From IMG/VR virus record IMGVR_UViG_3300012347_000217, positions 46,664 through 110,663 of that record: a DNA stretch of 64,000 nucleotides. One strand, 5' to 3'. The stretch comes from a virus (Duplodnaviria > Heunggongvirae > Uroviricota > Caudoviricetes). Of the stretch, positions 2,735 through 47,027 are shown in pieces; the first letter of the stretch is position 1; the number at the start of each line of letters is the position of its first letter. Both the position numbers and the translations under genes were made by a program. The notes under the pieces were generated by a model, which saw only the letters and a program-made list of their open reading frames with translations, ran no database searches and was not told the DNA's origin.

Positions 2735-2913
2735 AGTTCAATTGTAAAAAGAAACCCGACAGACGACCAACATGGCACACATGGTTTGCTTGGCATCCAG
2801 TGCGGATTGCCGACGAGGATTGCCGTTGGTTGGAAAAGGTTGAACGCCGTGGTACCTTCGAGTATGACTCCCAAGGTGGTTACTGGCACTATGAGTATAG
2901 GGCACTGAAATGA
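2722..2913 (+). CDS. hypothetical protein
   Basis: 63-aa ORF overlapping both neighbours, Trp/Arg rich. Confidence 0.4.
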   Translation: MDNMKFNCKKKPDRRPTWHTWFAWHPVRIADEDCRWLEKVERRGTFEYDSQGGYWHYEYRALK

Positions 2914-3356
2914 AAATTATTATTGCTGGTGGTCGTGACTTCAAGGACTGGGATATGTTCCAGGGTTACATGTCTACGCTTCCACCATGGATCTCAATTA
3001 ACGAGGTGGTTTCTGGTGGAGCCACAGGAGCAGATGCCCTAGGAGAAACATGGGCCAAGATGATGAATATTCCATGCAAGGTATTCAATGCCGAATGGGA
3101 ACGCCTAGGTCGTAAAGCTGGTCCTATGCGTAATGTAGAAATGTCCATCTATGGTGACGGACTGATTGCTTTTTGGGATGGTAAGTCTAAAGGTACAGCA
3201 CACATGATTTCGGTTATGGTTGCTGCCGAGAAATGGACTTACGTGGTGAGAACCGACATTCCATGGGATGGTAAATGGACTACTGATAAAGACGGAAAAC
3301 GTCTGGGTCCTTTACTGAATAATGTTGAGGTCTATTATGCAAACAAAGGTACATAA
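2910..3356 (+). CDS. SLOG / DUF2493-family (DprA/LOG-like Rossmann) nucleotide-binding protein
   Basis: MKIIIAGGRDF start followed by GGATGADALGETWA, the signature Gly-rich motif of the SLOG/DUF2493 family; 148 aa. Confidence 0.65.
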   Translation: MKIIIAGGRDFKDWDMFQGYMSTLPPWISINEVVSGGATGADALGETWAKMMNIPCKVFNAEWERLGRKAGPMRNVEMSIYGDGLIAFWDGKSKGTAHMISVMVAAEKWTYVVRTDIPWDGKWTTDKDGKRLGPLLNNVEVYYANKGT

Positions 3357-4455: not shown

Positions 4456-4894
4456 TCCATCCCTCCACCAAATCTATGATGACATGGGTAAGAACATCGT
4501 CCTCTCCTACTTCAATGACAAGCTGGGTATCCAAGCCATCGAGAACCCAGACAAGTATGGAGTAGACGTAATCCTTCTCAGAGACAAGAAGTACATCGGT
4601 TTTGCAGAGGTGGAAGTGAGAAACTCCTGGAAGAGCTATGCCTTCCCATACGAAACCTTGAACGTACCGAAGCGGAAACAGAAACTTTTAGATAATCCTC
4701 TCCCCACCTATTTCTTCTCTATCAACGCCCCAGGTACCCGTATGTTCTGTTGCGAAGCAACGGCGGTCCTCCGGGCTGCCCTCCAAGAGAACCCAAATAA
4801 GTACGTTTCCAAAGGAGAATACTTCTATAAGGTTTCCTTAGACCAACTGAAATCTATTGATATACCAGAGAGTATGAGCTGGAGTAAACCATGA
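4430..4894 (+). CDS. hypothetical protein
   Basis: ORF 4394..4894; in-frame ATG at 4430 overlaps the upstream gene end. The segment GVDVILLRDKKYIGFAEVEVRNSWK loosely resembles a restriction-endonuclease-like core. This is not verified. Confidence 0.5.
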   Translation: MEHQNKRFDPSLHQIYDDMGKNIVLSYFNDKLGIQAIENPDKYGVDVILLRDKKYIGFAEVEVRNSWKSYAFPYETLNVPKRKQKLLDNPLPTYFFSINAPGTRMFCCEATAVLRAALQENPNKYVSKGEYFYKVSLDQLKSIDIPESMSWSKP

Positions 4895-5250
4895 GATATA
4901 CTGTGGTACTAGAGAGTTCCGTTACACATCCTATACAGAAGAAAACATTCAAAAATAAGCGGGATGCTGAGTCCTATGCTGAGAGAGTATCTAAACACTG
5001 GAGAGGTACTGTAAAGGTTGAGAGAATTGGAGCTGCACCTCCTGTAGAATCATTACAATACCGTAGAGACCGGTCACTATATGATACACTGTGTAACGGA
5101 GATCCAACCTTTAAGGACCGTATAAGCTTTGAAGACTTCCGTGGAGGTAAGCTGACGGAGAAGAACTTCGTTCCCGAGATGAATTCTGCACCTGGAAAAA
5201 ATTCTGAATCTGAGCTGAGAACCGAAAAGACGAAAAACGTTGGAGAATGA
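4891..5250 (+). CDS. hypothetical protein
   Basis: 119-aa ORF with ATGA overlap with the previous gene. Confidence 0.5.
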   Translation: MRYTVVLESSVTHPIQKKTFKNKRDAESYAERVSKHWRGTVKVERIGAAPPVESLQYRRDRSLYDTLCNGDPTFKDRISFEDFRGGKLTEKNFVPEMNSAPGKNSESELRTEKTKNVGE

Positions 5251-5401
5251 TCCGGAGGTCGGAAAATAAATTAGAGAGAAATCGAGTTTGGGCCTAACAC
5301 AACTTTTGCTCACATTGAATACTTTTTAGCTAAAGTGGCCATACTTTTTAGAAACAAAAGTATTACATTAAGTCTCTCAACTTTTTGAATACTTTTGTTT
5401 C

Positions 5402-5596
5402 TTATTCTATTTCAATTGTATCAATTAAGTTCGCATTTTCATCAACTGAAATATGTACTAATTTTCCCTTGTAATCACAAAGCGCTACATTCTCAGGGCA
5501 AAGTACTTCAAAAGCATTATATTCTGAGTTGTTGCGTAAGAACAACACGATAGCGTCGATGGCTTTTGTACTACTTTCGATGTATGTCGTTGTCAT
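5402..5596 (-). CDS. hypothetical small protein
   Basis: 64-aa ORF on the opposite strand inside an otherwise promoter-rich region. Confidence 0.35.
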   Translation of the reverse strand: MTTTYIESSTKAIDAIVLFLRNNSEYNAFEVLCPENVALCDYKGKLVHISVDENANLIDTIEIE

Positions 5597-5613
5597 TTTG
5601 TACTACTTTCGTG

Positions 5614-5862
5614 TTATACTACTTCAGTGTTAATAAATTCGTTCAATTCTTCTTTTGTATCGAACACTTGAGAAAAAATGAATTCTTCTTGCTCATCATC
5701 ATAAAAACAATAAATTTCGTACATTGTATGCTCTAACTTTTCGAGCGTGATACAATGCACGAAGTGTTCGACATAGTATGCAACTTTAGTATTACTTTCG
5801 TCGTATACGTCGAATTCATTACAATCCGATGATTCGAACGTTTGTTTAGTAGTGTATGACAT
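5614..5862 (-). CDS. hypothetical small acidic protein
   Basis: 82-aa ORF upstream of 5402..5596 on the - strand. Confidence 0.4.
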   Translation of the reverse strand: MSYTTKQTFESSDCNEFDVYDESNTKVAYYVEHFVHCITLEKLEHTMYEIYCFYDDEQEEFIFSQVFDTKEELNEFINTEVV

Positions 5863-5964
5863 TTTGAGCTTCTTTCGTTTGTTGATGTATCAATTATGCA
5901 CTATCGGGCCGAAAAGTCAAGCGATATTTAATAACTTATTTTCCGGTCAAGTATTAAAAAATGC

Positions 5965-5992
5965 TTGCCGAATCCAAAAAATGATGTATAAT
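5965..5992 (+). promoter_or_regulatory. sigma70-like promoter (-35 TTGCCG 5965-5970, 16-nt spacer, -10 TATAAT 5987-5992)
   Basis: read directly; A-rich tract aaaaaatgc upstream of the -35 box. Confidence 0.55.
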
Positions 5993-5999
5993 TGAATCA

Positions 6000-6110
6000 T
6001 TCGAAAGCAAGACTGGGATGCACACGGAGGCTGGGCGTCTCCCCTGGATCAATCCGCCAGCGCAAAACCCATCACGGTTACCCCATTCTATCATACTTGG
6101 CAAGACTCGG
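6000..6110 (+). ncRNA. candidate small RNA unit U1 (paralogue of U2)
   Basis: starts ~8 nt after the -10 of the 5965-5992 promoter; about 110 nt alignable with 6568-6680 (tcgaa.g...gggatg.ac..ggaggctg...ccagcgc...tcac.gt.accc.att.tatcat). Confidence 0.25.
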
Positions 6111-6215
6111 CAAGCGAAAAATAAAAACATATTTTCCGGTCAAGTATTCGATTTTGCTTGCCTTTTGCTCTGGCTTCGAGTACAGTTTGGACAGCTTACA
6201 AAAAGGAGAAAATGT

Positions 6216-6428
6216 ATGGCTACATTGGTCTATTGGATCATGACGCAGGAGGATGATGCCGCCTGTTATAATATCATTGCCAAGACTAAAAAGGACGCAT
6301 TGGATCAGGCTGCCGCCCGTTCCTACTGCACCTGGAGTGAACCGAAAAGAGTACAAAAGTACTACAAGGATGCCTTTGACCTATTCGCCATGGCTACATC
6401 CGAGGATGGAGGTCGGACCGAATATTAG
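6216..6428 (+). CDS. hypothetical small protein (70 aa)
   Basis: strong RBS AAGGAGAA 7 nt upstream of ATG 6216; the longer 6018..6428 ORF in the track is probably an artefactual N-terminal extension. Confidence 0.45.
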   Translation: MATLVYWIMTQEDDAACYNIIAKTKKDALDQAAARSYCTWSEPKRVQKYYKDAFDLFAMATSEDGGRTEY

Positions 6429-6532
6429 AACCAAAGTACTCCAGACCACCTCGGTGGCTCCGGTACGCTCTAGGTGCTAGGAGGCGCCTCGGTGGCTATC
6501 CACGCCTTCCGAAAATACATCAAAATAAATGG

Positions 6533-6560
6533 TTGCCAGTAGTGCCGGATGATGTATAAT
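6533..6560 (+). promoter_or_regulatory. sigma70-like promoter (-35 TTGCCA 6533-6538, 16-nt spacer, -10 TATAAT 6555-6560)
   Basis: read directly. Confidence 0.55.
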
Positions 6561-6567
6561 CCATCCA

Positions 6568-6680
6568 TTGATTCGAAGGACATATCCGGGATGGACGTGG
6601 AGGCTGCCTGACCAGAATTCCCAGCGCCGGCACCCTTCACTGTCACCCTATTATATCATGCCCCGCAACGGCTGGCAACC
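6568..6680 (+). ncRNA. candidate small RNA unit U2 (paralogue of U1)
   Basis: immediately downstream of the 6533-6560 promoter; sequence paralogous to 6000-6110; no ORF. Confidence 0.25.
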
Positions 6681-6913
6681 AGTTTACAAACTATTTTTGG
6701 CTCATTTTTGAATACTTTTGTTTGCAGGATGAACCACTGTATACTACTATGGTTAACCCACTAGGATCGCACGGAGCACTGGTTTCGGCATTAATGAAGG
6801 TCAACACCTTGCCGTGCATCATTGCCTAATCCTGACTGGTTCTGGTTGATCCTAAGCATGGCAAGCATTTTCTATGGTACTGTACCGATTCGGTTGTAAT
6901 ACTTTTGTACCTC

Positions 6914-6942
6914 TTGCCAGATTTTCGTGGTTATGATATAAT
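6914..6942 (+). promoter_or_regulatory. sigma70-like promoter (-35 TTGCCA 6914-6919, 17-nt spacer, -10 TATAAT 6937-6942)
   Basis: read directly; followed by a non-coding stretch up to ~7200. Confidence 0.5.
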
Positions 6943-7334
6943 ATGGAGCCGTGGGAAACCTGGTCTAAGACAAGGATCAAATTGTCACCCAGCGACTGGT
7001 CCAGCGACAATTCTGCAAGGTGCGCTGGAATGACTACTAAATAGCGGCTTCTTTCGGAATATTAATACTTTCCTATTACGGTACTACTATGGTTCTAATC
7101 CCTTCCGTTGGAGTAATACTTCCGTCCGCTCTATATGGAATAACGTGCCTGCGCCCGCACGGATACACCATTGGCTGAAAATTGGCAATTCTTTTCTTAT
7201 ACTCCATCCTTCTGGTCAACTATTAAAAAACTGGTTGCCTTTTCTTTTTTGTTCCGCCACAATTCATCCATCGGTTAAATGATTTTGATTGATTGACGAA
7301 TAACCCAGCGAAAAGGTCAAGAATTAAAAAATGC

Positions 7335-7362
7335 TTGCCAAGCGGTTGATTCTAGTTAATAA
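7335..7362 (+). promoter_or_regulatory. promoter for the 7414 gene (-35 TTGCCA 7335-7340, -10 TAATAA-like); a tandem copy sits at 7235-7262 with the same AATTCATCCATCGG leader
   Basis: aaaaaatgcTTGCCA followed by a conserved leader AATTCATCCATCGGCTAACC; duplicate leader at 7261-7280. Confidence 0.4.
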
Positions 7363-7413
7363 TTCATCCATCGGCTAACCGATACATTTTCAACAACCAA
7401 ACGGAGTATTATC

Positions 7414-7908
7414 ATGGCTAAAATGACAACCAAGACAGTGGAAAAAATGACTTTTAAAACCAAAGTGGAAATGATGGCTTACATCAAGGCATTGACCGCC
7501 GCCCAGCATACGGAAATTGTCGCCGCTTATGATATCGGCGCCGATTCGCCAGAGCACGCTAAAACCTTGGCATCCTATATCATCCAAGGCGTATTCCTGA
7601 AAAAATCAGGTAATGACTTGGTGGAATATGCGTTATCACAGGCAGAGAAAATTGGCAAGACAATGCCAAGTGCCGCCGTAAAAGTTGCCACCGAAAAGGT
7701 TGCCAAAGTCAAAAAAGAGAAGCCAGCCTCCAAGCCCCGTATCAAATATGCCGATTTTGAAATTGTGGAGCGTCCTGACCGTGGCGGCTGGGAAGGCTGG
7801 TATGCTGGCAAAGCCGAAGCCTTCCGCACTACCGTGGCAAAGGTTGACGCCTTTTTCCTGAAAAAGTATAAGGCAACTGGCACAGTCGTCCCAGCCCGTA
7901 CGGCTTAA
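7414..7908 (+). CDS. hypothetical protein
   Basis: 164-aa ORF after a GGAG RBS; Lys/Ala-rich, no recognisable motif. Confidence 0.6.
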   Translation: MAKMTTKTVEKMTFKTKVEMMAYIKALTAAQHTEIVAAYDIGADSPEHAKTLASYIIQGVFLKKSGNDLVEYALSQAEKIGKTMPSAAVKVATEKVAKVKKEKPASKPRIKYADFEIVERPDRGGWEGWYAGKAEAFRTTVAKVDAFFLKKYKATGTVVPARTA

Positions 7909-7979
7909 CAGTTAACCCAGAGGATGGCAACGTCCTCTGGGAATAACCCAGCGGAATGGTATACTATTATTGGTAGTTG

Positions 7980-8007
7980 CCATTCCATTGGAATTATGAT
8001 AACAGGA
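7980..8007 (+). promoter_or_regulatory. TTGCCA-family promoter (weak -10 ATAACA)
   Basis: ggtagTTGCCAttccattggaattatgATAACA upstream of gene 8012. Confidence 0.3.
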
Positions 8008-8011
8008 GAAA

Positions 8012-8203
8012 ATGATGGCAGATAATCTGGTTTTTGTAGTGGTCCGCCGGTCAACCGTACGGGAAGAGGCATGGCAACTGGCTCGCCTTTTCACGAATAT
8101 TGGAGCGGCGGAGGAGTACCAGGAAATGGTTCAACTAGGCGACCAATGGGAGACCACTATCCAAACCCACAATGTGTGGAATGACGGTCTCCTGACTGCC
8201 TAA
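8012..8203 (+). CDS. hypothetical protein
   Basis: 63-aa ORF with RBS AGGAGAAAA. Confidence 0.5.
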   Translation: MMADNLVFVVVRRSTVREEAWQLARLFTNIGAAEEYQEMVQLGDQWETTIQTHNVWNDGLLTA

Positions 8204-8409
8204 GTGGTACGGAGTAACCATGCACCAGAATGATTGGAAGAGTCCTAGGCGAATCGGTCAACGGGTGACTGGTCAACCTATAACCCAAGATTTTGGTGCA
8301 GTTTGGACCATTCTGGTGCATACCAGCATGGCACGGAATGATGGTTTAATTGTGACAATGTGAGAAAATCGGCAGGCAACGGCTTGCCAAAAACCTTGGA
8401 GTATGATAT

Positions 8410-8587
8410 GGGGACAATTTTCAGGACCATCAAAATCACATGGTGGGAAAATGGCACGGTGACTTGGTTAACCGTGCATGGGTTGACCGAAGCCCAAGCA
8501 TGGGACAATGCCCGCCACTTTGGTTGCATCAAGCCATTGTGGTACCAATTCTGGCTTCGCCGCCCACTTATGGAGAAAACCTTATGA
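8410..8587 (+). CDS. hypothetical small protein
   Basis: in-frame ATG with a GGAG RBS inside track ORF 8360..8587. Confidence 0.3.
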
Positions 8588-8852: not shown

Positions 8853-8880
8853 TTGCCATCGTCCATCGGTGGCATACAAT
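8853..8880 (+). promoter_or_regulatory. TTGCCA-family early promoter (-35 8853-8858, -10 TACAAT 8875-8880) preceded by the conserved tcttcggataatgg element
   Basis: atcttcggataatggTTGCCA-16 nt-TACAAT; the same 20-mer occurs upstream of the 9608 and 11073 promoters. Confidence 0.5.
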
Positions 8881-9128: not shown

Positions 9129-9632
9129 ATGACAACCGTTTCCAAAATACCACTCGGACGTGTCCGTGCCGATGCAGGCACCTATGCGGATGGTTCTTAC
9201 CTGTACCTGACCAAGCACTCTTGGGACTGTGGATGGTACTGGGGCTTTGGTTACGTGGGTAACCGTGACTGCCATTTCCACTTTGATTCCTTGCTGAATA
9301 TCAAGGACAATAAGGGTGGTATAAAATACACTGCCACGGATTTGTTCTCTGAAACCTACATCACCGACAAGGAATGGTGGATTATCCGTGACTTATTCGT
9401 CCAAGCCTATGCACTTAAAAAGGCGGCAGCGGTGTACCGTCAAGGAGGGCACCAAACCACTGCCAAAGGTGTGACGGATATCATCCAAGACAATGGCTTG
9501 GTGACACGAATCAACGCCGACCTGGAAAAGGTCCTCGATACCGTGTGGAACTATACGGTGGCCGCCGTCACAAAACCACAGACGGCAGAATTATCTTCGG
9601 ATAATGGTTGCCAGTCGCCTGTGGCAGTGTAG
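9129..9632 (+). CDS. hypothetical protein
   Basis: in-frame ATG (MTTVSKIPLG) inside track ORF 9093..9632. Confidence 0.5.
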   Translation: MTTVSKIPLGRVRADAGTYADGSYLYLTKHSWDCGWYWGFGYVGNRDCHFHFDSLLNIKDNKGGIKYTATDLFSETYITDKEWWIIRDLFVQAYALKKAAAVYRQGGHQTTAKGVTDIIQDNGLVTRINADLEKVLDTVWNYTVAAVTKPQTAELSSDNGCQSPVAV

Positions 9633-9635
9633 AAT
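9608..9635 (+). promoter_or_regulatory. TTGCCA-family early promoter (-10 TAGAAT 9630-9635) with upstream tcttcggataatgg element
   Basis: read directly; overlaps the 3' end of the upstream gene; followed by leader tatcacatcaacaac. Confidence 0.5.
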
Positions 9636-11072: not shown

Positions 11073-11100
11073 TTGCCACTTCATTTTATCATGGTACAAT
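11073..11100 (+). promoter_or_regulatory. TTGCCA-family early promoter (-10 TACAAT 11095-11100) with upstream ttttcggataatgg element and tatcacatcgacaac leader
   Basis: read directly; the ORF-track start at 11069 (MVATSFYHG) reads through this promoter and is rejected. Confidence 0.5.
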
Positions 11101-15576: not shown

Positions 15577-15831
15577 ATGGACAGAAAAAAGGCCATAAAG
15601 TATTTGGATATTGCCGTCGAACACACAAGGGCAAAAGACAACGGCACGATTGGCCAAAAAGGTCTCAATATAATCTGTACCGAAAAAGTAATGGAACTAA
15701 TAATTGAAGATGTGGAACGGATATTATTAGAGCAAGCTGAATGGGCCGCAGAACATCCTTTACTTAGTGCAGAAATGAGTGCATTGGATACCCTCAACCA
15801 AATTGTTAACTTTTTCGGAGTTGAAGAATGA
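15577..15831 (+). CDS. hypothetical protein
   Basis: 84-aa ORF with a GGAG RBS. Confidence 0.5.
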   Translation: MDRKKAIKYLDIAVEHTRAKDNGTIGQKGLNIICTEKVMELIIEDVERILLEQAEWAAEHPLLSAEMSALDTLNQIVNFFGVEE

Positions 15832-17132
15832 AGATTATTGAAATCCTGCATGGGATGTCCGCAAACCCATCACGCAACCATAAGCAACAGGTCCTTGAGG
15901 ACAACAAAGGCAACGATGTACTGAAGGAAGTATTCCGTTTGGCATATGATCCGTTCACACAGTTCTATATTCGGAAGATTCCGCAATATACAACCAATTT
16001 GTCCAGTCATGCGGCATCACTGGCTTCTATGTTGCCGGCATTGTCGGATTTATCCAATCGTGTGGTCACAGGCAATGCCGCTATTGATAGGCTCAAAGCT
16101 ATCCTCGAAGCGGTTGATGTTGATGATGCTTGGGTTATTGAACGCATCATTGGTAAAGACCTGCGTGTTGGTTGCACAGGCTCAACGGCTAACAAAGTGT
16201 GGCCAAACCTAGTCATGGAATATCCATGTATGTTGGCGTCTGTATTGGATTTGGGTAACCTCAACAAGATTACCTACCCTGCAATGGCTCAACTGAAAAT
16301 GGATGGTATGCGGTTCAATGCTATTGTCCGTGGTTCTAAGGTAGAGTTCCGTTCACGCAACGGTAAAGAGATTGACCTCAAAGGTAACCTTGAGCAAGAC
16401 TTCATTCAACTAGCCAAAGGTAAAGACCTTGTGTTTGATGGTGAATTGGTTGTAAAAGATAAAGGTAAGATCCTTGACCGACAAACTGGTAATGGCATTC
16501 TGAATAAGGCCGTAAAAGGTACTATCTCTGCGAATGAGGCCGAAATGGTGTGTGCCACTATTTGGGACCTGATTGATTATGCCGACTTCACCAAAGGCAA
16601 ATCAACCGACACATACAATGTCCGATTCAATAAACTCAAAGGCATGGCCATGAAGCCATTACCTAATCGTATTGATTTGGTTGAGTATCAAATGGTTGAA
16701 AATGCGGCCGATGCCTATGCAACCTTCTCATTCTACCATGAGCAAGGCCAAGAAGGTATCATTCTGAAAGACCTTACTGGCATTTGGGAAGACAAACGAG
16801 CAAAGCATCAAATCAAATTCAAAGGTGAATTGGATTGTGACCTCAAGATTGTTGGTGTTGAAGAAGGCACAGGTAAATATAAGGGTAAACTTGGTGCCTT
16901 GCAGTGTGAATCCGAAGATGGTATCATCAAGGTTGATGTTGGCTCAGGTTTCAATGATGTCCAACGGTATAATATTTGGGTTGACCGTAATGTGATGATT
17001 GGTAAAATCGTTGCACTCAAGTACAATGCACGTATCAAGAACCGCCAAGGTGGTGAGTCTCTGTTCTTACCTATCTTCCTTGAGGTGCGTGAAGATAAGA
17101 CAGCTGCGGACACCGAAGATAAAATCAAATAA
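15828..17132 (+). CDS. 30: ATP-dependent DNA ligase (T4 gp30-like)
   Basis: adenylation motif AMAQLKMDGMR (KxDG); TGNAAI, ANKVWP and MLAS segments match T4 DNA ligase; 434 aa. Confidence 0.9.
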   Translation: MKIIEILHGMSANPSRNHKQQVLEDNKGNDVLKEVFRLAYDPFTQFYIRKIPQYTTNLSSHAASLASMLPALSDLSNRVVTGNAAIDRLKAILEAVDVDDAWVIERIIGKDLRVGCTGSTANKVWPNLVMEYPCMLASVLDLGNLNKITYPAMAQLKMDGMRFNAIVRGSKVEFRSRNGKEIDLKGNLEQDFIQLAKGKDLVFDGELVVKDKGKILDRQTGNGILNKAVKGTISANEAEMVCATIWDLIDYADFTKGKSTDTYNVRFNKLKGMAMKPLPNRIDLVEYQMVENAADAYATFSFYHEQGQEGIILKDLTGIWEDKRAKHQIKFKGELDCDLKIVGVEEGTGKYKGKLGALQCESEDGIIKVDVGSGFNDVQRYNIWVDRNVMIGKIVALKYNARIKNRQGGESLFLPIFLEVREDKTAADTEDKIK

Positions 17133-17188
17133 TGCTTGACATTCAATTCTGGTAGAGTACAATTATCACAAGACAATGAAAGGTGATT

Positions 17189-19515: not shown

Positions 19516-19541
19516 TGTGAGCATTGAACAACGGAGTAATA

Positions 19542-20663
19542 ATGAACAAAAACGCAAAGGCATTCCTACAGGCCGCAGTCAATAAGTATGGCTCTGGTTC
19601 TATTATCACACGGGATAATATCCAAGATGTTGTGACTGAAAGTGGTGTACCGTTTCCCTATTGGTTCATCACCAAACCAGAGTATCGTGCAGAACGTGGT
19701 CAATACCGATTGCCTACTATGGACACCAACACCGGTGATTCAACCACTATCGTATTCCCACAAACTCTCCGTCAAAAGCGTCTTGAGGATGATTCTGATA
19801 CGGCTATCCCAGAGAAGTTTGAAGGCTTTGTTCCGTTTGGCTTCTATAAAGACCTGTATAGCATTGTAAACTCCAGCCAATTCTTTCCTGTGTTTATCAC
19901 TGGTCTATCAGGCAACGGCAAAACCCTTATGGTTGAGCAAGTGTGTGCAACCCTCAAGCGTGAATGTATCCGTGTTAATATCTCCATTGAGACTGATGAA
20001 ACCGACCTGATTGGCTCAAACACCTTGGTTGATGGCAACGTTGTTTACCGTGATGGTCCTGTTATGACTGCCATGAAACGTGGTGCCGTGCTATTGATTG
20101 ACGAAGTTGACCGTGGTTCCAACAAGCTGATGTGCCTGCAAGGTATCTTAGAAGGTAAACCATATTACAACAAGAAGTCTGGTGAGTACATTCATCCAAC
20201 CGAAGGCTTCACTGTCATTGCAACTGCCAACACCAAAGGCCGTGGCTCAGAAGAAGGCCGCTATCTCTCACAGATTTTGGATGATGCCTTCTTGGAACGA
20301 TTCGTGTTGACTGTGGAGCAGGAGTATCCTGATACCAAGGTTGAGTTGAAGATTTTGAAACCATTATTGAATGATGACGAGTTTGCGGAGAACCTAGTAA
20401 AATGGGCCGATGTGATTCGCAAAACCTTTGATGAAGGTGGTATTGACGAGATTATCTCCACACGCCGACTGGTTCATATCGCAAAGACCTATTCTGTATT
20501 CAAAGACCGCAAACGTGCCATTGAACTGTGTGTGAACCGATTTGACCAAGAGACCAAGGACTCATTCATTGATTTGTATACTAAGGTTGATGCCAAGGTT
20601 GCAGAAGCACCACCATTACCAGAAGCAACACGGGCACCTGATGATGAAGAAATCCCATTCTAA
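19542..20663 (+). CDS. AAA_5 (CobS/MoxR-like) AAA+ ATPase
   Basis: Walker A GLSGNGKTL; Walker B LLIDEVDR; ATANT sensor-1; arginine-containing C-terminal segment. Resembles the CobS-like ATPases I recall from T4-like cyanophages. Confidence 0.75.
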   Translation: MNKNAKAFLQAAVNKYGSGSIITRDNIQDVVTESGVPFPYWFITKPEYRAERGQYRLPTMDTNTGDSTTIVFPQTLRQKRLEDDSDTAIPEKFEGFVPFGFYKDLYSIVNSSQFFPVFITGLSGNGKTLMVEQVCATLKRECIRVNISIETDETDLIGSNTLVDGNVVYRDGPVMTAMKRGAVLLIDEVDRGSNKLMCLQGILEGKPYYNKKSGEYIHPTEGFTVIATANTKGRGSEEGRYLSQILDDAFLERFVLTVEQEYPDTKVELKILKPLLNDDEFAENLVKWADVIRKTFDEGGIDEIISTRRLVHIAKTYSVFKDRKRAIELCVNRFDQETKDSFIDLYTKVDAKVAEAPPLPEATRAPDDEEIPF

Positions 20664-21251: not shown

Positions 21252-21279
21252 TTGCCATTTTATATGGTTAGTGCATAAT
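21252..21279 (+). promoter_or_regulatory. TTGCCA-family promoter (-10 CATAAT)
   Basis: aataatgtTTGCCAttttatatggttagtgCATAAT. Confidence 0.45.
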
Positions 21280-23494: not shown

Positions 23495-23579
23495 TTTCGG
23501 TTTATATCAAATAATGATTGACAACAATTAAAGTTTGATATATACTTATCATTCAACATCCACTCAAAAGGAATTTTAT

Positions 23580-34542: not shown

Positions 34543-35940
34543 ATGAAACTGGCAAAAAATATCTTATTGAATACCGACTCGTACAAGGTTAGTATGTGGA
34601 AACAATATCCCGTGGGAACCACTGGAGTTTACTCATACATCGAATCACGTGGCGGTAAGTATGACGAGACACTGATGTTCGGCCTACAAGCCTTCATCAA
34701 GGAGTATTTACTTGAACCAATCACACAAGCCGACATTGACATTGCAGACGAGATTCTCACAGCGCACGGTGAACCCTTCAACCGAGCTGGTTGGGATTAC
34801 ATCCTTAAAAATCACAAAGGATACCTCCCACTCGTTATTCGTGCTGTACCTGAAGGCACTGTGGTCCCTGTCTCGAATGTTCTGGCAACTGTCGAGAACA
34901 CAGACCCAGAATGTTTCTGGCTGACAACTTACCTTGAAACTGCTTTGCTTCGTGCTGTGTGGTATGGTACAACCGTAGCAACACAGTCATATAAAATCAA
35001 GAAGGTTATTCTTGAATACTTGGAGAAAACTGGTGATCCTGCTGGTATTGATTTTAAATTGCATGATTTCGGTGCCCGTGGTGTTTCAAGTATGGAATCT
35101 GCGGGGATTGGTGGCGCAGCGCACTTGGTTAATTTTATGGGTACTGACACTGTTACTGGTCTGCTTTATGCTCGTGAGTACTATAACGCTGGCATTGCAG
35201 GTTTCTCAATTCCAGCCGCAGAACACTCCACAATCACAAGTTGGGGTCGTGAAAACGAAGTAAAAGCCTATGACAACATGCTCAACCAATTTGCTAAACC
35301 TGGTGCTATCCTTGCAGTTGTATCTGATAGCTATGACATTTACAATGCAGCTTCTAAGTTATGGGGTGAAGAACTCCGACAAAAGGTTGTGGATTCTGGC
35401 GCTACTGTCGTCATTCGCCCTGATTCTGGTGACCCTGTAGCCGTCAATAAACAATTGGTTCAAATCTTGGATCAAAAGTTCGGCAGTACAGTAAACTCCA
35501 AAGGTTTCAAAGTTCTTAATAACATTCGACTGATTCAAGGAGATGGTGTAAATGAACTTACTATTCGCTCTATTCTTGGTGCCTTTATGGCTCTTGGGTA
35601 TTCTGCTGATAATATTGCTTTTGGCATGGGTGGAGCGTTGTTGCAAATCGTGGATCGAGACACCCAACGATTCGCAATGAAGTGTTCTTCTATTCAAATC
35701 AATGGTGCATGGCAAGACGTACAGAAAGATCCTGTGACTGACTCTGGTAAGCGTTCTAAAGCAGGACGTGTAACTCTCTGGCAATCAGGCGGTGAACTGT
35801 ACTCTGGTATCAAACCACCAACAGGTTGGACCGACAAAGGTTATGGTGGTTGGGTCGAAGCAATGCAAACCGTGTACCGTGACGGTCAGATTGTCCGTGA
35901 ATACGACTTTGCAGAAGTTCGTGCCAATGCACGTAAGTGA
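34543..35940 (+). CDS. nadV: nicotinamide phosphoribosyltransferase (NadV/NAMPT)
   Basis: N-terminus NILLNTDSYKVSMWKQYP and overall 465 aa match NAMPT. Confidence 0.9.
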   Translation: MKLAKNILLNTDSYKVSMWKQYPVGTTGVYSYIESRGGKYDETLMFGLQAFIKEYLLEPITQADIDIADEILTAHGEPFNRAGWDYILKNHKGYLPLVIRAVPEGTVVPVSNVLATVENTDPECFWLTTYLETALLRAVWYGTTVATQSYKIKKVILEYLEKTGDPAGIDFKLHDFGARGVSSMESAGIGGAAHLVNFMGTDTVTGLLYAREYYNAGIAGFSIPAAEHSTITSWGRENEVKAYDNMLNQFAKPGAILAVVSDSYDIYNAASKLWGEELRQKVVDSGATVVIRPDSGDPVAVNKQLVQILDQKFGSTVNSKGFKVLNNIRLIQGDGVNELTIRSILGAFMALGYSADNIAFGMGGALLQIVDRDTQRFAMKCSSIQINGAWQDVQKDPVTDSGKRSKAGRVTLWQSGGELYSGIKPPTGWTDKGYGGWVEAMQTVYRDGQIVREYDFAEVRANARK

Positions 35941-42919: not shown

Positions 42920-43609
42920 ATGTACTTAACAGAAGAAGAAATCCAACAAAGACAAGATACATTTTTAGAGTTCATCCAAACTATGGCCGACGAGCTTTAT
43001 GAAGGTTTGGATGAAGAATACGAATTGACTGAAGAAGATGCTTATTTGGCATCTATTATGATGGAACATTTCGTAGATAATTACACCCAATTGACACTTA
43101 AAGAATCTGCAACATTGGCGCTAACTGGCCAAGAAGATCCTAACCAAGAACTGTTTGAAGAATTCATTGAAATGGCTCTCGACGAATCTATTGGTGGTGC
43201 AGTTGCTGGTGTCGTTCACGGTATCAAGAATTTACTATCTCGCCGCAAAGCTAAGAAGGCATCCGCAGGTGCAGCCGGCGCAAAAGCCTCTGCTAATGTA
43301 ATCAAAGCAAAAGCAGCCAAGGCAGACAAAGATGCTAAAGGTTCAAAAGGTTTGGTTGGTGTATTCAAGCAAGCCAAGGCTGCTAAATTAGCAGCACGCC
43401 ATGACAAGTCTATCGACAAATCAGCGGCTGCACAGAACGCAGCACGAGCGGCAAGCAGACAACACCGTTCTTCATTGAAAGCACGTGCTAGCCTAAAGAG
43501 CAAAATCGACACTGGTATCTCTAACGTCAAGAAAAAGGTTGTTGGTGCTGTCAAATCTGGTGCAGAGAAGGTTGCTTCCGCAGCAGGTCGTGTCGCAGGT
43601 TCATTCTAA
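42920..43609 (+). CDS. protein with acidic N-terminal half and Lys/Ala-rich histone-H1-like C-terminal tail
   Basis: 229 aa; C-terminal AKKASAGAAGAKASANVIKAKAAKADKDAKGSKG... Confidence 0.5.
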   Translation: MYLTEEEIQQRQDTFLEFIQTMADELYEGLDEEYELTEEDAYLASIMMEHFVDNYTQLTLKESATLALTGQEDPNQELFEEFIEMALDESIGGAVAGVVHGIKNLLSRRKAKKASAGAAGAKASANVIKAKAAKADKDAKGSKGLVGVFKQAKAAKLAARHDKSIDKSAAAQNAARAASRQHRSSLKARASLKSKIDTGISNVKKKVVGAVKSGAEKVASAAGRVAGSF

Positions 43610-43612
43610 GAC

Positions 43613-43641
43613 TTGACAAAGAATTCGGAGTATGTTATACT
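43613..43641 (+). promoter_or_regulatory. consensus sigma70 promoter (TTGACA 43613-43618, 17-nt spacer, TATACT 43636-43641) driving the tmRNA-like locus
   Basis: read directly. Confidence 0.6.
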
Positions 43642-43647
43642 CCGTTT

Positions 43648-43714
43648 CAATGATAGTAAACTTGGTATAAGAAAAGTATTCTGGACGGGGGTTCGAATCC
43701 CCCCATCTCCACCA
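43648..43714 (+). ncRNA. ssrA: tmRNA acceptor piece (T-arm GGGGG-TTCGAAT-CCCCC, 3' acceptor strand CATCTCC, discriminator A, CCA) of a permuted two-piece tmRNA
   Basis: sequence ...TATTCTGGAC GGGGG TTCGAAT CCCCC CATCTCC A CCA ends at 43714, parallels the E. coli tmRNA 3' end; 5' boundary uncertain. Confidence 0.6.
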
Positions 43715-43799
43715 TAAAGCATATTGAGTGTTCTGCAGGACACGGCATTACCAGTAATGGCGCCACTACACAAGATGTAGGTTCAGTATGTTTTATAAT

Positions 43800-43975
43800 G
43801 GGGATGCACTTGGTTTCGACAGGGTAACAAGTACGATATTCGGCTATCCGTCAGAGTTGACGTAAACACTAAATCAAAATAAATGCAAATGACGAAAGTT
43901 ACGCATTGGCAGCCTAAACGCTGACTAGGGTTTTTGACAGTTTGTCCTCGTAACAGAATCAAACTGTCTTTTCAA
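43800..43975 (+). ncRNA. ssrA: tmRNA coding piece (5' acceptor GGGGATG, CACTTGGTTTCGACAGGG, tag ORF 43885-43917 encoding ANDESYALAA)
   Basis: GGGGATGCACTTGGTTTCGACAGGG vs E. coli GGGGCUGAUUCUGGAUUCGACGGG; GGGGATG pairs 7/7 with CATCTCC of the upstream piece including a G3-U70 wobble; GCAAATGACGAAAGTTACGCATTGGCAGCCTAA translates to ANDESYALAA stop; 3' boundary uncertain. Confidence 0.6.
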
Positions 43976-46136: not shown

Positions 46137-47027
46137 ATGTCTTCATTCGCAAATCTCAAGCGCAACTCCGGCAACCTAGACAAGCTTGCCAAAGCTATCG
46201 AACAACTCAATAGCTCAGACTCCAACTCCAAAGACGACAATTTCTGGAAACCAGAAGTAGACAAAGCCGGTAACGGTTATGCTGTACTGCGTTTCTTGCC
46301 AGCACCTTCAGTAGATGGTGATGACGGTCTCCCATGGGTTAAAGTGTTTGACCACGGCTTCCAAGGTCCTGGTGGTTGGTACATTGAGAACTCGCTGACC
46401 ACACTCGGTCACAAAGATCCAGTTTCAGAATACAACTCACAGTTGTGGAACTCAGGCATCGAAGCAAACAAAGAAATCGCACGTAAACAAAAGCGCCGCC
46501 TTTCTTATATCTGCAACGTGTATGTTGTAGAAGATTCAAAGAACCCACAAAACGAAGGCAAAGTCTTCTTGTACAAGTTCGGTAAGAAAATCTTCGACAA
46601 GATTAACGAAGCAATGAACCCACAGTTCGAAGATGAAAAAGCAGTTAACCCATTTGACCTCTGGTCTGGTGCTAACTTCAAGTTGAAGATTCGTAATGTG
46701 GAAGGCTATCGCAACTATGACAAGTCCGAATTCGCAGCATCTGCTCCTTTGATGGAAGATGATGAAAAGATGGAAGCAGTCTGGAAGAAAGAATACTCTC
46801 TCAAAGAGTTTGTTGCACCAGAAAACTTCAAGTCATATGACGAGTTGAAAGCACGTTTGGATAAAGTGTTGGGTGTTGATGGTTCTGCGCCAGCACCACG
46901 TACAACAGTTGAACAAGCGAAAGCATCTGCTCCACGTAAGCCAGTTCAGGCAGAAGATTCACCTGCTCCAGTAGCAACTGATGACGATGACGATATGGCA
47001 TATTTCAGCAAGCTAGCCGCTGAATAA
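46137..47027 (+). CDS. 32: gp32 single-stranded DNA-binding protein
   Basis: KPEVDKAGNGYAVLRFLP...HGFQGPGGWYIENS...NEGKVFLYKFGKKIFDKI matches T4 gp32 KLKLDNAGNGQAVIRFLP...HGFKKNGKWYIE...NEGKVFKYRFGKKIWDKI; acidic C-terminal tail. Confidence 0.95.
   Translation: MSSFANLKRNSGNLDKLAKAIEQLNSSDSNSKDDNFWKPEVDKAGNGYAVLRFLPAPSVDGDDGLPWVKVFDHGFQGPGGWYIENSLTTLGHKDPVSEYNSQLWNSGIEANKEIARKQKRRLSYICNVYVVEDSKNPQNEGKVFLYKFGKKIFDKINEAMNPQFEDEKAVNPFDLWSGANFKLKIRNVEGYRNYDKSEFAASAPLMEDDEKMEAVWKKEYSLKEFVAPENFKSYDELKARLDKVLGVDGSAPAPRTTVEQAKASAPRKPVQAEDSPAPVATDDDDDMAYFSKLAAE

Follow-up and report, generated by a model that had tools for sequence, protein, structure and literature searches.

What is the function of a 2.1-kb segment of phage DNA that is crowded with promoters and has little coding capacity? 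The segment lies at positions 5251–7413 of a 64,000-nucleotide (nt) stretch of the IMG/VR virus record IMGVR_UViG_3300012347_000217 (positions 46,664 to 110,663 of the record), and this whole stretch is referred to here as the window. A first-pass annotation, made from the letters alone, had proposed that the segment holds a cluster of small RNAs (sRNAs), each driven by its own sigma-70-type promoter. Two units within it, u1 and u2, carry an element that is conserved, non-coding and promoter-proximal, and that is common to a clade of uncultured freshwater T4-like phages. Rfam, the annotated collection of phages and the literature searched all lacked a description of it. The reading that we favor, with a probability of roughly 0.4, is that the element may be an origin-linked primer or activator transcript, in the manner of T4 oriE/oriF and of RNA II/RNA I of ColE1.

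Two promoter-driven units and their shared core

A promoter scan of 4500–8500 returned 15 promoter-like sites compared with 7.8 +/- 2.3 in shuffled sequences, which bears out the promoter density described in the first-pass annotation, as do the strong plus-strand promoters that the scan recovered at 5965–5992, 6533–6560, 6914–6942 and 7335–7363. A further promoter that had been placed at 7235–7262 is weak (TTGCCT-17-CACAAT, 8/12) and fell under the scan threshold. The u1 promoter (5945–5992, plus strand) consists of an upstream repeat, GGTCAAGTATTAAAAAATGC, and TTGCCG-16-TATAAT at 5965–5992, with a predicted start at A5999, while transcription of u2 is predicted to start at A6567 from TTGCCA-16-TATAAT (6533–6560, plus strand; 11/12). 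The conserved 3' third of each unit, overlooked in the earlier annotation, is a minus-strand promoter read in reverse. The u1 antisense promoter is located at 6113–6085 (TTGCCG-17-TAGAAT, TG-extended, 9/12; predicted start ~6078; ~80 nt of overlap with the sense transcript) and that of u2 at 6678–6650 (TTGCCA-17-TATAAT, TG-extended, 11/12; predicted start ~6643; ~77 nt of overlap). Two promoters thus face each other in each unit, and their predicted starts are separated by 77–80 nt.

The two units are 60% identical over ~124 nt and form direct repeats 568 nt apart, around an orphan gene of 70 amino acids (aa). A profile built from them matches only these two places in the 64-kb window (E ~1e-35), and a covariance model agrees, with cores on the plus strand at 5999–6037 for u1 (53.2 bits, E 2.9e-9) and at 6567–6610 for u2 (62.5 bits, E 3e-11). 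Thus, u1 and u2 are true paralogues as had been claimed, whereas the third unit proposed at 6944–7040 shares only its promoter with them by both the profile and the covariance model. This third strong promoter (6914–6942, plus strand; TTGCCA-17-TATAAT, TG-extended) drives 'u3' (6949–7060), which has no relative in any fetched locus.

Codon-usage scores confirmed the low coding capacity of the segment, being positive only for the 70-aa gene (+0.51 per codon) and two minus-strand open reading frames (ORFs; +0.32 and +0.38), and gene calling on two Logan contigs that match the window exactly agreed with this result. All ORFs over u1, over u2 and in 6429–7413 scored at most +0.19 per codon and mostly below zero. 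Units u1 and u2 are non-coding and promoter-driven, as the earlier annotation held. Hidden small proteins over the two units were rejected because the frames are not conserved between the paralogues and have negative codon scores, and a mini-ORF beginning 'MDVEA...' was rejected as a protein because it varies at first and second codon positions.

The consensus of the element is 5'-AUUC-GAA-(hairpin)-G-GGAU-GGAC(G/A)(U/C)GGAGGCUG-(G/C)nCG, in which the tail is nearly invariant, purine-rich and single-stranded. An outer helix, P1, pairs AUUC with GGAU (5999–6002 with 6016–6019 in u1, and 6571–6574 with 6589–6592 in u2), and its 5' strand is followed by GAA, which is bulged at 6003–6005 in u1 and lies at 6575–6577 in u2. 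The inner hairpin, P2, has 2–4 pairs and a loop of 3–8 nt and is the sole variable part of the element. In u1 it is formed by 6006–6007 and 6013–6014 (AG/CU), and in u2 by 6578–6580 and 6585–6587 (GGA/UCC) with the loop CAUA. The purine-rich tail of u1 is GCACACGGAGGCUG (6020–6033), then GGCG, and the tail of u2 is GGACGUGGAGGCUG (6593–6606).

A family of relatives with covariation, polarity and mosaic joints

The window comes from a distant T4-like myovirus. Its gp6-type baseplate wedge has 38–42% identity to the counterparts in Methylophilales phage Melnitz and pelagiphage HTVC008M, and this protein, together with T4 RNase H in syntenic relatives, upholds the T4-like assignment made from the sequence. 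No nucleotide-level relative of the window was found among 50,697 sequenced phages, and the element was not found in them by DNA either. Many plus-strand promoters of one type, (A/T-rich)-TTGCCA-16/17-TAnAAT, occur in the first ~24 kb of the window (1959–23546), and 5251–7413 therefore sits in an early, small-gene ('hyperplastic') region.

A 16-base pattern from the shared core, searched against IMG/VR, returned 29 loci, about half of which are chance matches, as the size of the database predicts; sorting with the profile left ~15 of the 29 as true relatives, each with TATAAT and ATTCGAA just upstream. A stricter 22-base pattern matched 53 contigs from metagenomes, the majority of them of freshwater lakes. 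The same pattern gave a single match in 185,579 genome representatives, on a small contig of a freshwater metagenome-assembled genome, and a host-derived sequence was rejected on this ground. The covariance model found 77 copies, 54 of them distinct, in 64 sources (freshwater viral and metagenome contigs); in the window it found u1 and u2 and no other copy, and it had no match in 528 kb of phage loci that were gathered via an unrelated neighboring gene. Synteny via neighboring genes gave no further copies: a 164-aa protein has no relative in IMG/VR, and none of the 51 loci related through a 179-aa protein carries the element. The loci of the relatives share CobT-like, Gad2-like and GP88-like genes and an AAA protein with the window and also carry T4 RNase H and NrdAB, and this gene content places them in one clade of uncultured T4-like phages. 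A Gad2-like gene (cluster c7) is kept beside the element in many related loci. Rfam 15 had no family over u1 or u2 and none in 5200–7500 to E 10, with four chance-level matches elsewhere (E at least 1).

The family bears out the expectation of conservation with compensatory changes, in that the P2 hairpin of u1 and u2 covaries across 54 distinct relatives, with the variants CAG/CUG, GAG/CUC, GGA/UCC, GGG/CCC, GUG/CAC, CUG/CAG, GC/GC and AG/CU. On the model-derived alignment, 95.6% of P2 cells are paired, and each of the three pairs varies on both of its sides. At the outer pair, 23 sequences have GC, 16 have CG and 15 have AU, with zero mismatches. The covariation score of P2 is 0.765 compared with 0.20 in shuffles (reached in 0 of 500) and at most 0.075 for slid partners, and changes on both sides occur in 57 cells compared with 16 in shuffles. 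That alignment was fitted to the structure. An independent end-matching test on the raw variable segments agreed with it and gave a mean stem of 2.55 compared with 0.83, the maximum in 2000 shuffles being 1.41. These compensatory changes indicate selection on a single-stranded nucleic acid, most simply the RNA. The P1 helix is consistent with the data, although unproven: 97% of its cells are paired, and its changes are one-sided only (A-U to G.U in 12 sequences and U-A to U.G in 5). Its wobble pairs fit the sense strand only. P2 has zero G.U pairs, which would suit a helix formed also in the complementary strand, although the sample is too small to insist on this.

A sigma-70 promoter precedes the element in 45 of 46 unique copies, and its -10 box ends either 8–13 nt (35 copies) or 38–51 nt (10 copies) upstream of UCGAA. 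The RNA usually begins at the element, which forms its extreme 5' end in about three quarters of the copies. In 11 of the 46, about a quarter, an antisense promoter scoring at least 10/12 is predicted 34–57 nt beyond the core.

The surroundings of the element have a strict polarity. At least two DnaA boxes (at most one mismatch) occur within 300 nt downstream in 24 of 47 unique copies and upstream in 0 of 47, and their density downstream is 8.0 per kb compared with 0.8 per kb overall. Likewise, at least five copies of some 8-mer are found in 28 of 40 downstream regions, compared with 9 of 41 upstream and 9 of 61 random regions. Private iterons directly downstream include an array of 14 TTGTAACA-like copies in contig L039 and GCGAAATG / CGAAATC in L064 (positions 118–330), with others in L048 and L018. 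In L044 and L062, at least 10 tandem 12-nt units, GGAGACTACCAT / GGAGGCTACCAC, come right after the element, and these GGA-rich repeats could act at the RNA level too. A CsrA-type GGA sponge was considered as well, and it fits only these two contigs. The upstream gene is usually divergent from the element. At least 14 loci have a convergent gene next after it, and in these the transcript is therefore not an mRNA leader.

The core is also the place at which related genomes part. Contig L039 is 92.5% identical to the window over 6245–6606 and unrelated from 6607 on, and all other relatives match the window over the ~50-nt core and the promoter only. Of two Logan contigs from this phage, one ends at 6653 and the other starts at 6624, so that they have only the 30 nt of 6624–6653 in common, which suggests a branch of the assembly graph just after the core. 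Since the homology breakpoints lie at the core and not at the ends of the units, a mobile unit resembling a miniature inverted-repeat transposable element (MITE) between inverted promoters was rejected. The element acts as a homology patch, and such a linker role is compatible with every other reading of it.

A proposed origin-linked transcript and the alternatives to it

The surroundings in the relatives speak for an element that acts in cis, at an origin or control region, over a cluster of trans-acting sRNAs: the repeat arrays are strictly downstream, transcription often runs toward a convergent gene and the mosaic breakpoints fall at the core. In the favored reading, the element would be the part that is transcribed in a replication origin, or in an origin-like control region, of the phage. 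An early promoter of the host (sigma-70) type starts the transcript at, or a few bases before, the stem-bulge-stem, and the G-rich 5' RNA may stay annealed to the C-rich template as an R-loop. The R-loop would then melt the duplex, prime the leading strand, or both, with synthesis heading into a neighboring initiator array that is specific to the phage and that in the relatives would be the DnaA boxes or iterons. In the subfamily with u2 (and more weakly u1, at 9/12), the convergent promoter 77–80 nt downstream would produce an RNA fully complementary to the element, and this antisense RNA may damp the activity of the element as RNA I of ColE1 does for RNA II. The ~45-nt core may double as a recombination joint, since it is the only sequence common to otherwise unrelated flanks, and u1 and u2 would bracket the 70-aa orphan gene in this capacity.

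The origins of T4 have no common sequence motif (PMC3016281). T4 oriE (repEA/repEB) consists of an early-mode promoter and a cluster of iterons (PMC3016281). The element is similar in that, in the relatives, an early promoter of the host type is aimed at a group of short repeats within the non-essential small-gene region of a T4-type phage, with small orphan genes nearby. It differs in that the two have no sequence similarity, T4 oriE is without a known conserved structured 5' RNA motif, and the repeats that accompany the element vary between phages and are often host DnaA boxes, those of the window itself being weak. T4 oriF and oriG combine a promoter with an R-loop in a minimal unit of ~100 bp (PMC3016281). 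What the element has in common with these origins is a promoter ahead of a short transcribed stretch, with an RNA that is proposed to remain hybridized and to prime the leading strand, and a sigma-70 promoter lies directly upstream at u1, u2 and 45 of 46 relatives. Whereas oriF and oriG have MotA-dependent middle promoters and an A+T-rich, sequence-independent unwinding element, the promoter here is sigma-70 and not MotA-type, the transcribed region is G-rich and conserved in sequence, no AT-rich element follows, and the R-loop is proposed only. G makes up 58% of the core, C 11% and purines 74%, a composition that is suggestive of a persistent R-loop of the oriF/oriG type. A G-rich, purine-rich composition favors stable RNA:DNA hybrids. 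In divergent copies the tail stays G-rich while the GGAGG pentamer is lost (GCGAGG, UGGGG, GGAGUG), and this retention of G-richness without GGAGG argues against a ribosome-binding role; a Shine-Dalgarno or ribosome-decoy function of the motif was rejected accordingly.

In ColE1, a constitutive RNA II is linked to the origin and an antisense RNA I arises from a convergent promoter (PMC5043065). A comparable arrangement, in which a convergent promoter yields an RNA of ~80–110 nt complementary to the 5' end of the sense transcript, is predicted at u2 (11/12), at u1 (9/12) and in 11 of 46 relatives. Unlike the ColE1 system, the element lacks three-stem-loop kissing structures, its folding is weak, it has no match to the Rfam RNAI family, its proposed hybrid would form at the extreme 5' end and not 550 nt farther on, and the antisense promoter is present in only about a quarter of members.

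Several observations weigh against an origin-linked transcript, above all in the window itself. Near u1 and u2 there are no DnaA boxes, and the window as a whole has 19 compared with 18.9 expected; repeats within 300 nt downstream of the two units are at background level. Since the array in the window is not of DnaA boxes and consists at best of scattered AATACTT, an origin role for u1 and u2 themselves is the least secure step of the proposal. An A+T-rich unwinding element after the core is absent across the family (AT 54–57% compared with a locus mean of 56%), and the first 50 nt after the u1 core are 38% AT. Both window copies are co-directional with the downstream genes, so a role as a 5' untranslated region is possible. 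The invariance of the core is partly a product of the search pattern that gathered the relatives, and the model-based matches show variants. The occurrence of 2–4 copies within a few kb in some phages fits several origins, as in T4, and equally well a generic leader of early transcripts. Finally, no tested segment was predicted to fold better than its shuffles (z from -0.4 to +1.4), and RNAalifold returned a 4-bp helix only. The hairpin is too weak for a stable fold by itself, and this thermodynamically marginal structure probably forms only inside a complex.

An alternative, which we consider doubtful though well worth weighing, is that early transcripts carry the element as a cis-acting 5' leader, with RNA polymerase or a protein of the phage or the host binding its hairpin and G-rich tail. 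Such a leader may confer termination resistance, as do the nut sites (boxA/boxB) of lambdoid phages and the put sites of HK022, or affect the stability or processing of early mRNA, and the repeat arrays would then be unrelated regulatory sites. Like the element, the nut and put RNAs lie close to a promoter, are present twice in a genome, each time behind an early promoter, and consist of a small hairpin together with a linear element that is conserved. The position of the element at the extreme 5' end of most of its transcripts, the presence of at least two copies in a genome, with a separate strong early promoter for each, and the same-strand genes that follow in the window and in L014-type loci all agree with a leader, and a marginal covarying mini-helix beside an invariant linear sequence resembles RNA signals that are bound by proteins or by polymerase. 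However, the transcript meets a convergent gene in at least 14 loci, where a leader would have no same-strand ORF to act on, the strict downstream polarity of the DnaA-box and iteron arrays is unexplained, and an antisense promoter facing the leader would be unusual for antiterminators. The element also has no boxA-like sequence and no Rfam match, its P2 is shorter than boxB, its transcript is often without a downstream operon, and no N- or Q-like gene was identified.

It is improbable that u1, u2 and u3 are the discrete trans-acting sRNAs of the first-pass annotation, in which sense and antisense RNAs would come from the face-to-face promoters and the G-rich tail would serve as a seed for pairing with mRNAs of the host or the phage. 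The region is non-coding, strongly promoted and conserved, the hairpin is paired next to a single-stranded conserved tail, and the convergent promoters would yield fully complementary RNAs of ~77–80 nt. Against this, u3 is unrelated, the context in the relatives is that of a cis-acting element, and no evidence for discrete sRNAs emerged: a scan found no intrinsic terminator on either strand within 5251–7413, and thus none after either unit, and complementary sites to the element in the window are at chance (3 non-self matches compared with 2.7 expected). The folding energies, being at the level of shuffles, did not bear out a stable fold of the units, and a stable sRNA fold was rejected on them. 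Slightly less probable still is a pure recombination linker, an early-promoter cassette kept by exchange among co-infecting phages whose core has no function other than homology. The precedent is the PeSL (promoter-early stem-loop) cassettes of phages RB49 and phi1, which are repeated strong sigma-70 early promoters that flank orphan genes and act as recombination joints (PMC2839356). As in those cassettes, strong sigma-70 early promoters with AT-rich upstream parts are repeated in a hyperplastic region and flank orphan genes, u1 and u2 being direct repeats around one, and homology between phages stops exactly at the core, where assemblies also break. PeSLs are defined by a stable GC-rich stem-loop terminator (GGGG...CCCC) at or before the promoter, whereas in the element a covarying hairpin of 2–4 bp and an invariant tail lie beyond the start site, and a terminator is absent. 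Moreover, homology alone would not keep a hairpin by compensatory changes on both sides, nor would it hold a fixed polarity toward DnaA-box and iteron arrays.

If the element does belong to an origin, a more specific form of this proposal, which is possible yet somewhat less probable, is that it is a portable 'origin RNA' module. A sequence-defined, promoter-proximal, G-rich primer or R-loop RNA would recombine with interchangeable initiator arrays, made of host DnaA boxes in one phage and of private iterons in another, and one subfamily would be throttled by a ColE1-like antisense RNA. The origins of environmental T4-like phages are essentially unmapped, and a searchable motif that marks a promoter firing into DnaA-box or iteron arrays would make their mapping testable. 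Such a module would provide the first conserved, recognizable origin signature for T4-type phages. An origin role would also imply that lytic T4-like phages recruit host DnaA, and it would bring in a phage case of origin transcription under antisense control. Should the origin reading prove wrong, the element is still an uncatalogued structured element with clear covariation. It doubles as a recombination joint that shuffles early orphan genes, and its breaking of metagenome assemblies is of practical interest.

Other features of the segment and of the early region

The repeat GGTCAAGTATT (reverse complement AATACTTGACC) stands directly upstream of -35 boxes at 5945–5969, 6138–6162, 7214–7238 and 7315–7339 of the window, and also in contigs L014, L026, L032 and L078. 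The motif AATACTT is strongly concentrated in 5251–7413, which holds 9 of its 27 sites in the window. The GGTCAAGTATT / AATACTT motif may be a binding site for a phage or host regulator. One of the promoters with the repeat is a degenerate cassette copy ahead of the 70-aa gene (6138–6186, plus strand; D1/D3 repeat, TTGCCT-17-TACAGT, 8/12). A plus-strand promoter cassette of the form GGTCAA.TATTAAAAAA...TTGCC ... AATTCATCCATCGG is duplicated in tandem, ~100 nt apart, at 7214–7383; its upstream copy (7235–7263) is degenerate, while the downstream copy (7335–7363, TTGCCA-17-AATAAT) is a plausible promoter of the gene at 7414–7908. The ~735 nt of 6679–7413 are without coding signal and without a relative in any fetched locus, and an independent gene call on an identical contig placed no gene in 6624–7413. 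AATACTT / TACTACT motifs are enriched in 6679–7413, with plus-strand copies at 6711, 6742, 6898, 7064, 7082 and 7115.

At the other end of the segment, a minus-strand promoter (5893–5920; TTGACT-16-CATAAT, 10/12) is divergent from the u1 promoter. From it are read two AT-rich minus-strand genes, one of 82 aa (5614–5862), which has a relative in L032, and one of 64 aa (5402–5596); gene calling on an identical Logan contig returned both. On the left, the segment is bordered by an AT-rich, 15-bp perfect inverted repeat, AGAAACAAAAGTATT / AATACTTTTGTTTCT, at 5350–5402, with its arms 23 nt apart. This repeat lies between the convergent plus-strand gene 4891–5250 and the minus-strand ORFs and is probably a bidirectional terminator. 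Its right arm, TTTTTGAATACTTTTGTTT, recurs exactly at 6705–6723.

The early promoters of the window commonly have an extended upstream consensus, ...TCGGATAATGG / AAATAATGn-TTGCCA-16-TAnAAT, as at 8853–8880, 9608–9635, 11073–11100, 17136–17163, 21252–21279 and 23518–23546. Promoters with the TCGGATAATGG-type upstream part form a phage-specific class and could be used to map the early regulon.

The likeness to the tRNA and small stable RNA region of T4 that had been suggested for 5251–7413 did not hold up, as ARAGORN found no tRNA there and 5200–7500 matched no Rfam family. The same search over 64 kb confirmed the absence of tRNA genes that had been noted and found only a transfer-messenger RNA (tmRNA) at 43.6 kb. 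The gene is a permuted, two-piece tmRNA at 43599–43974 (plus strand) that scores 132.7 bits with the Rfam beta_tmRNA model and 132.2 bits with tmRNA_permuted. Its ARAGORN tag is ANDESYALAA, and a sigma-70-like promoter, TTGACA-17-TATACT, is found within the gene span at 43613–43641. A tmRNA of betaproteobacterial type on a phage hints at the host group, as for phage Melnitz.

The window also encodes a NAMPT (NadV-type) at 34543–35940, an ATP-dependent DNA ligase at 15828–17132 and a CbbQ/CobS-like AAA+ ATPase at 19524–20663, and a truncated CobT-like vWA protein occupies positions 1–234. Pfam matches carried over from an identical Logan contig are PF26128 (Gad2, anti-Gabija family) at 2165–2734 and PF10686 (YAcAr) at 2910–3356, both on the plus strand. 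The 70-aa gene between u1 and u2 (6216–6428, plus strand) has no Pfam or PHROG match; it is conserved in L039 with mostly synonymous changes. In the spacer between this gene and the u2 promoter, a direct repeat, CCTCGGTGGCT, is present at 6449–6459 and 6487–6497. Each copy sits in a short hairpin-like context, and this stretch is kept in L039 with a few changes.

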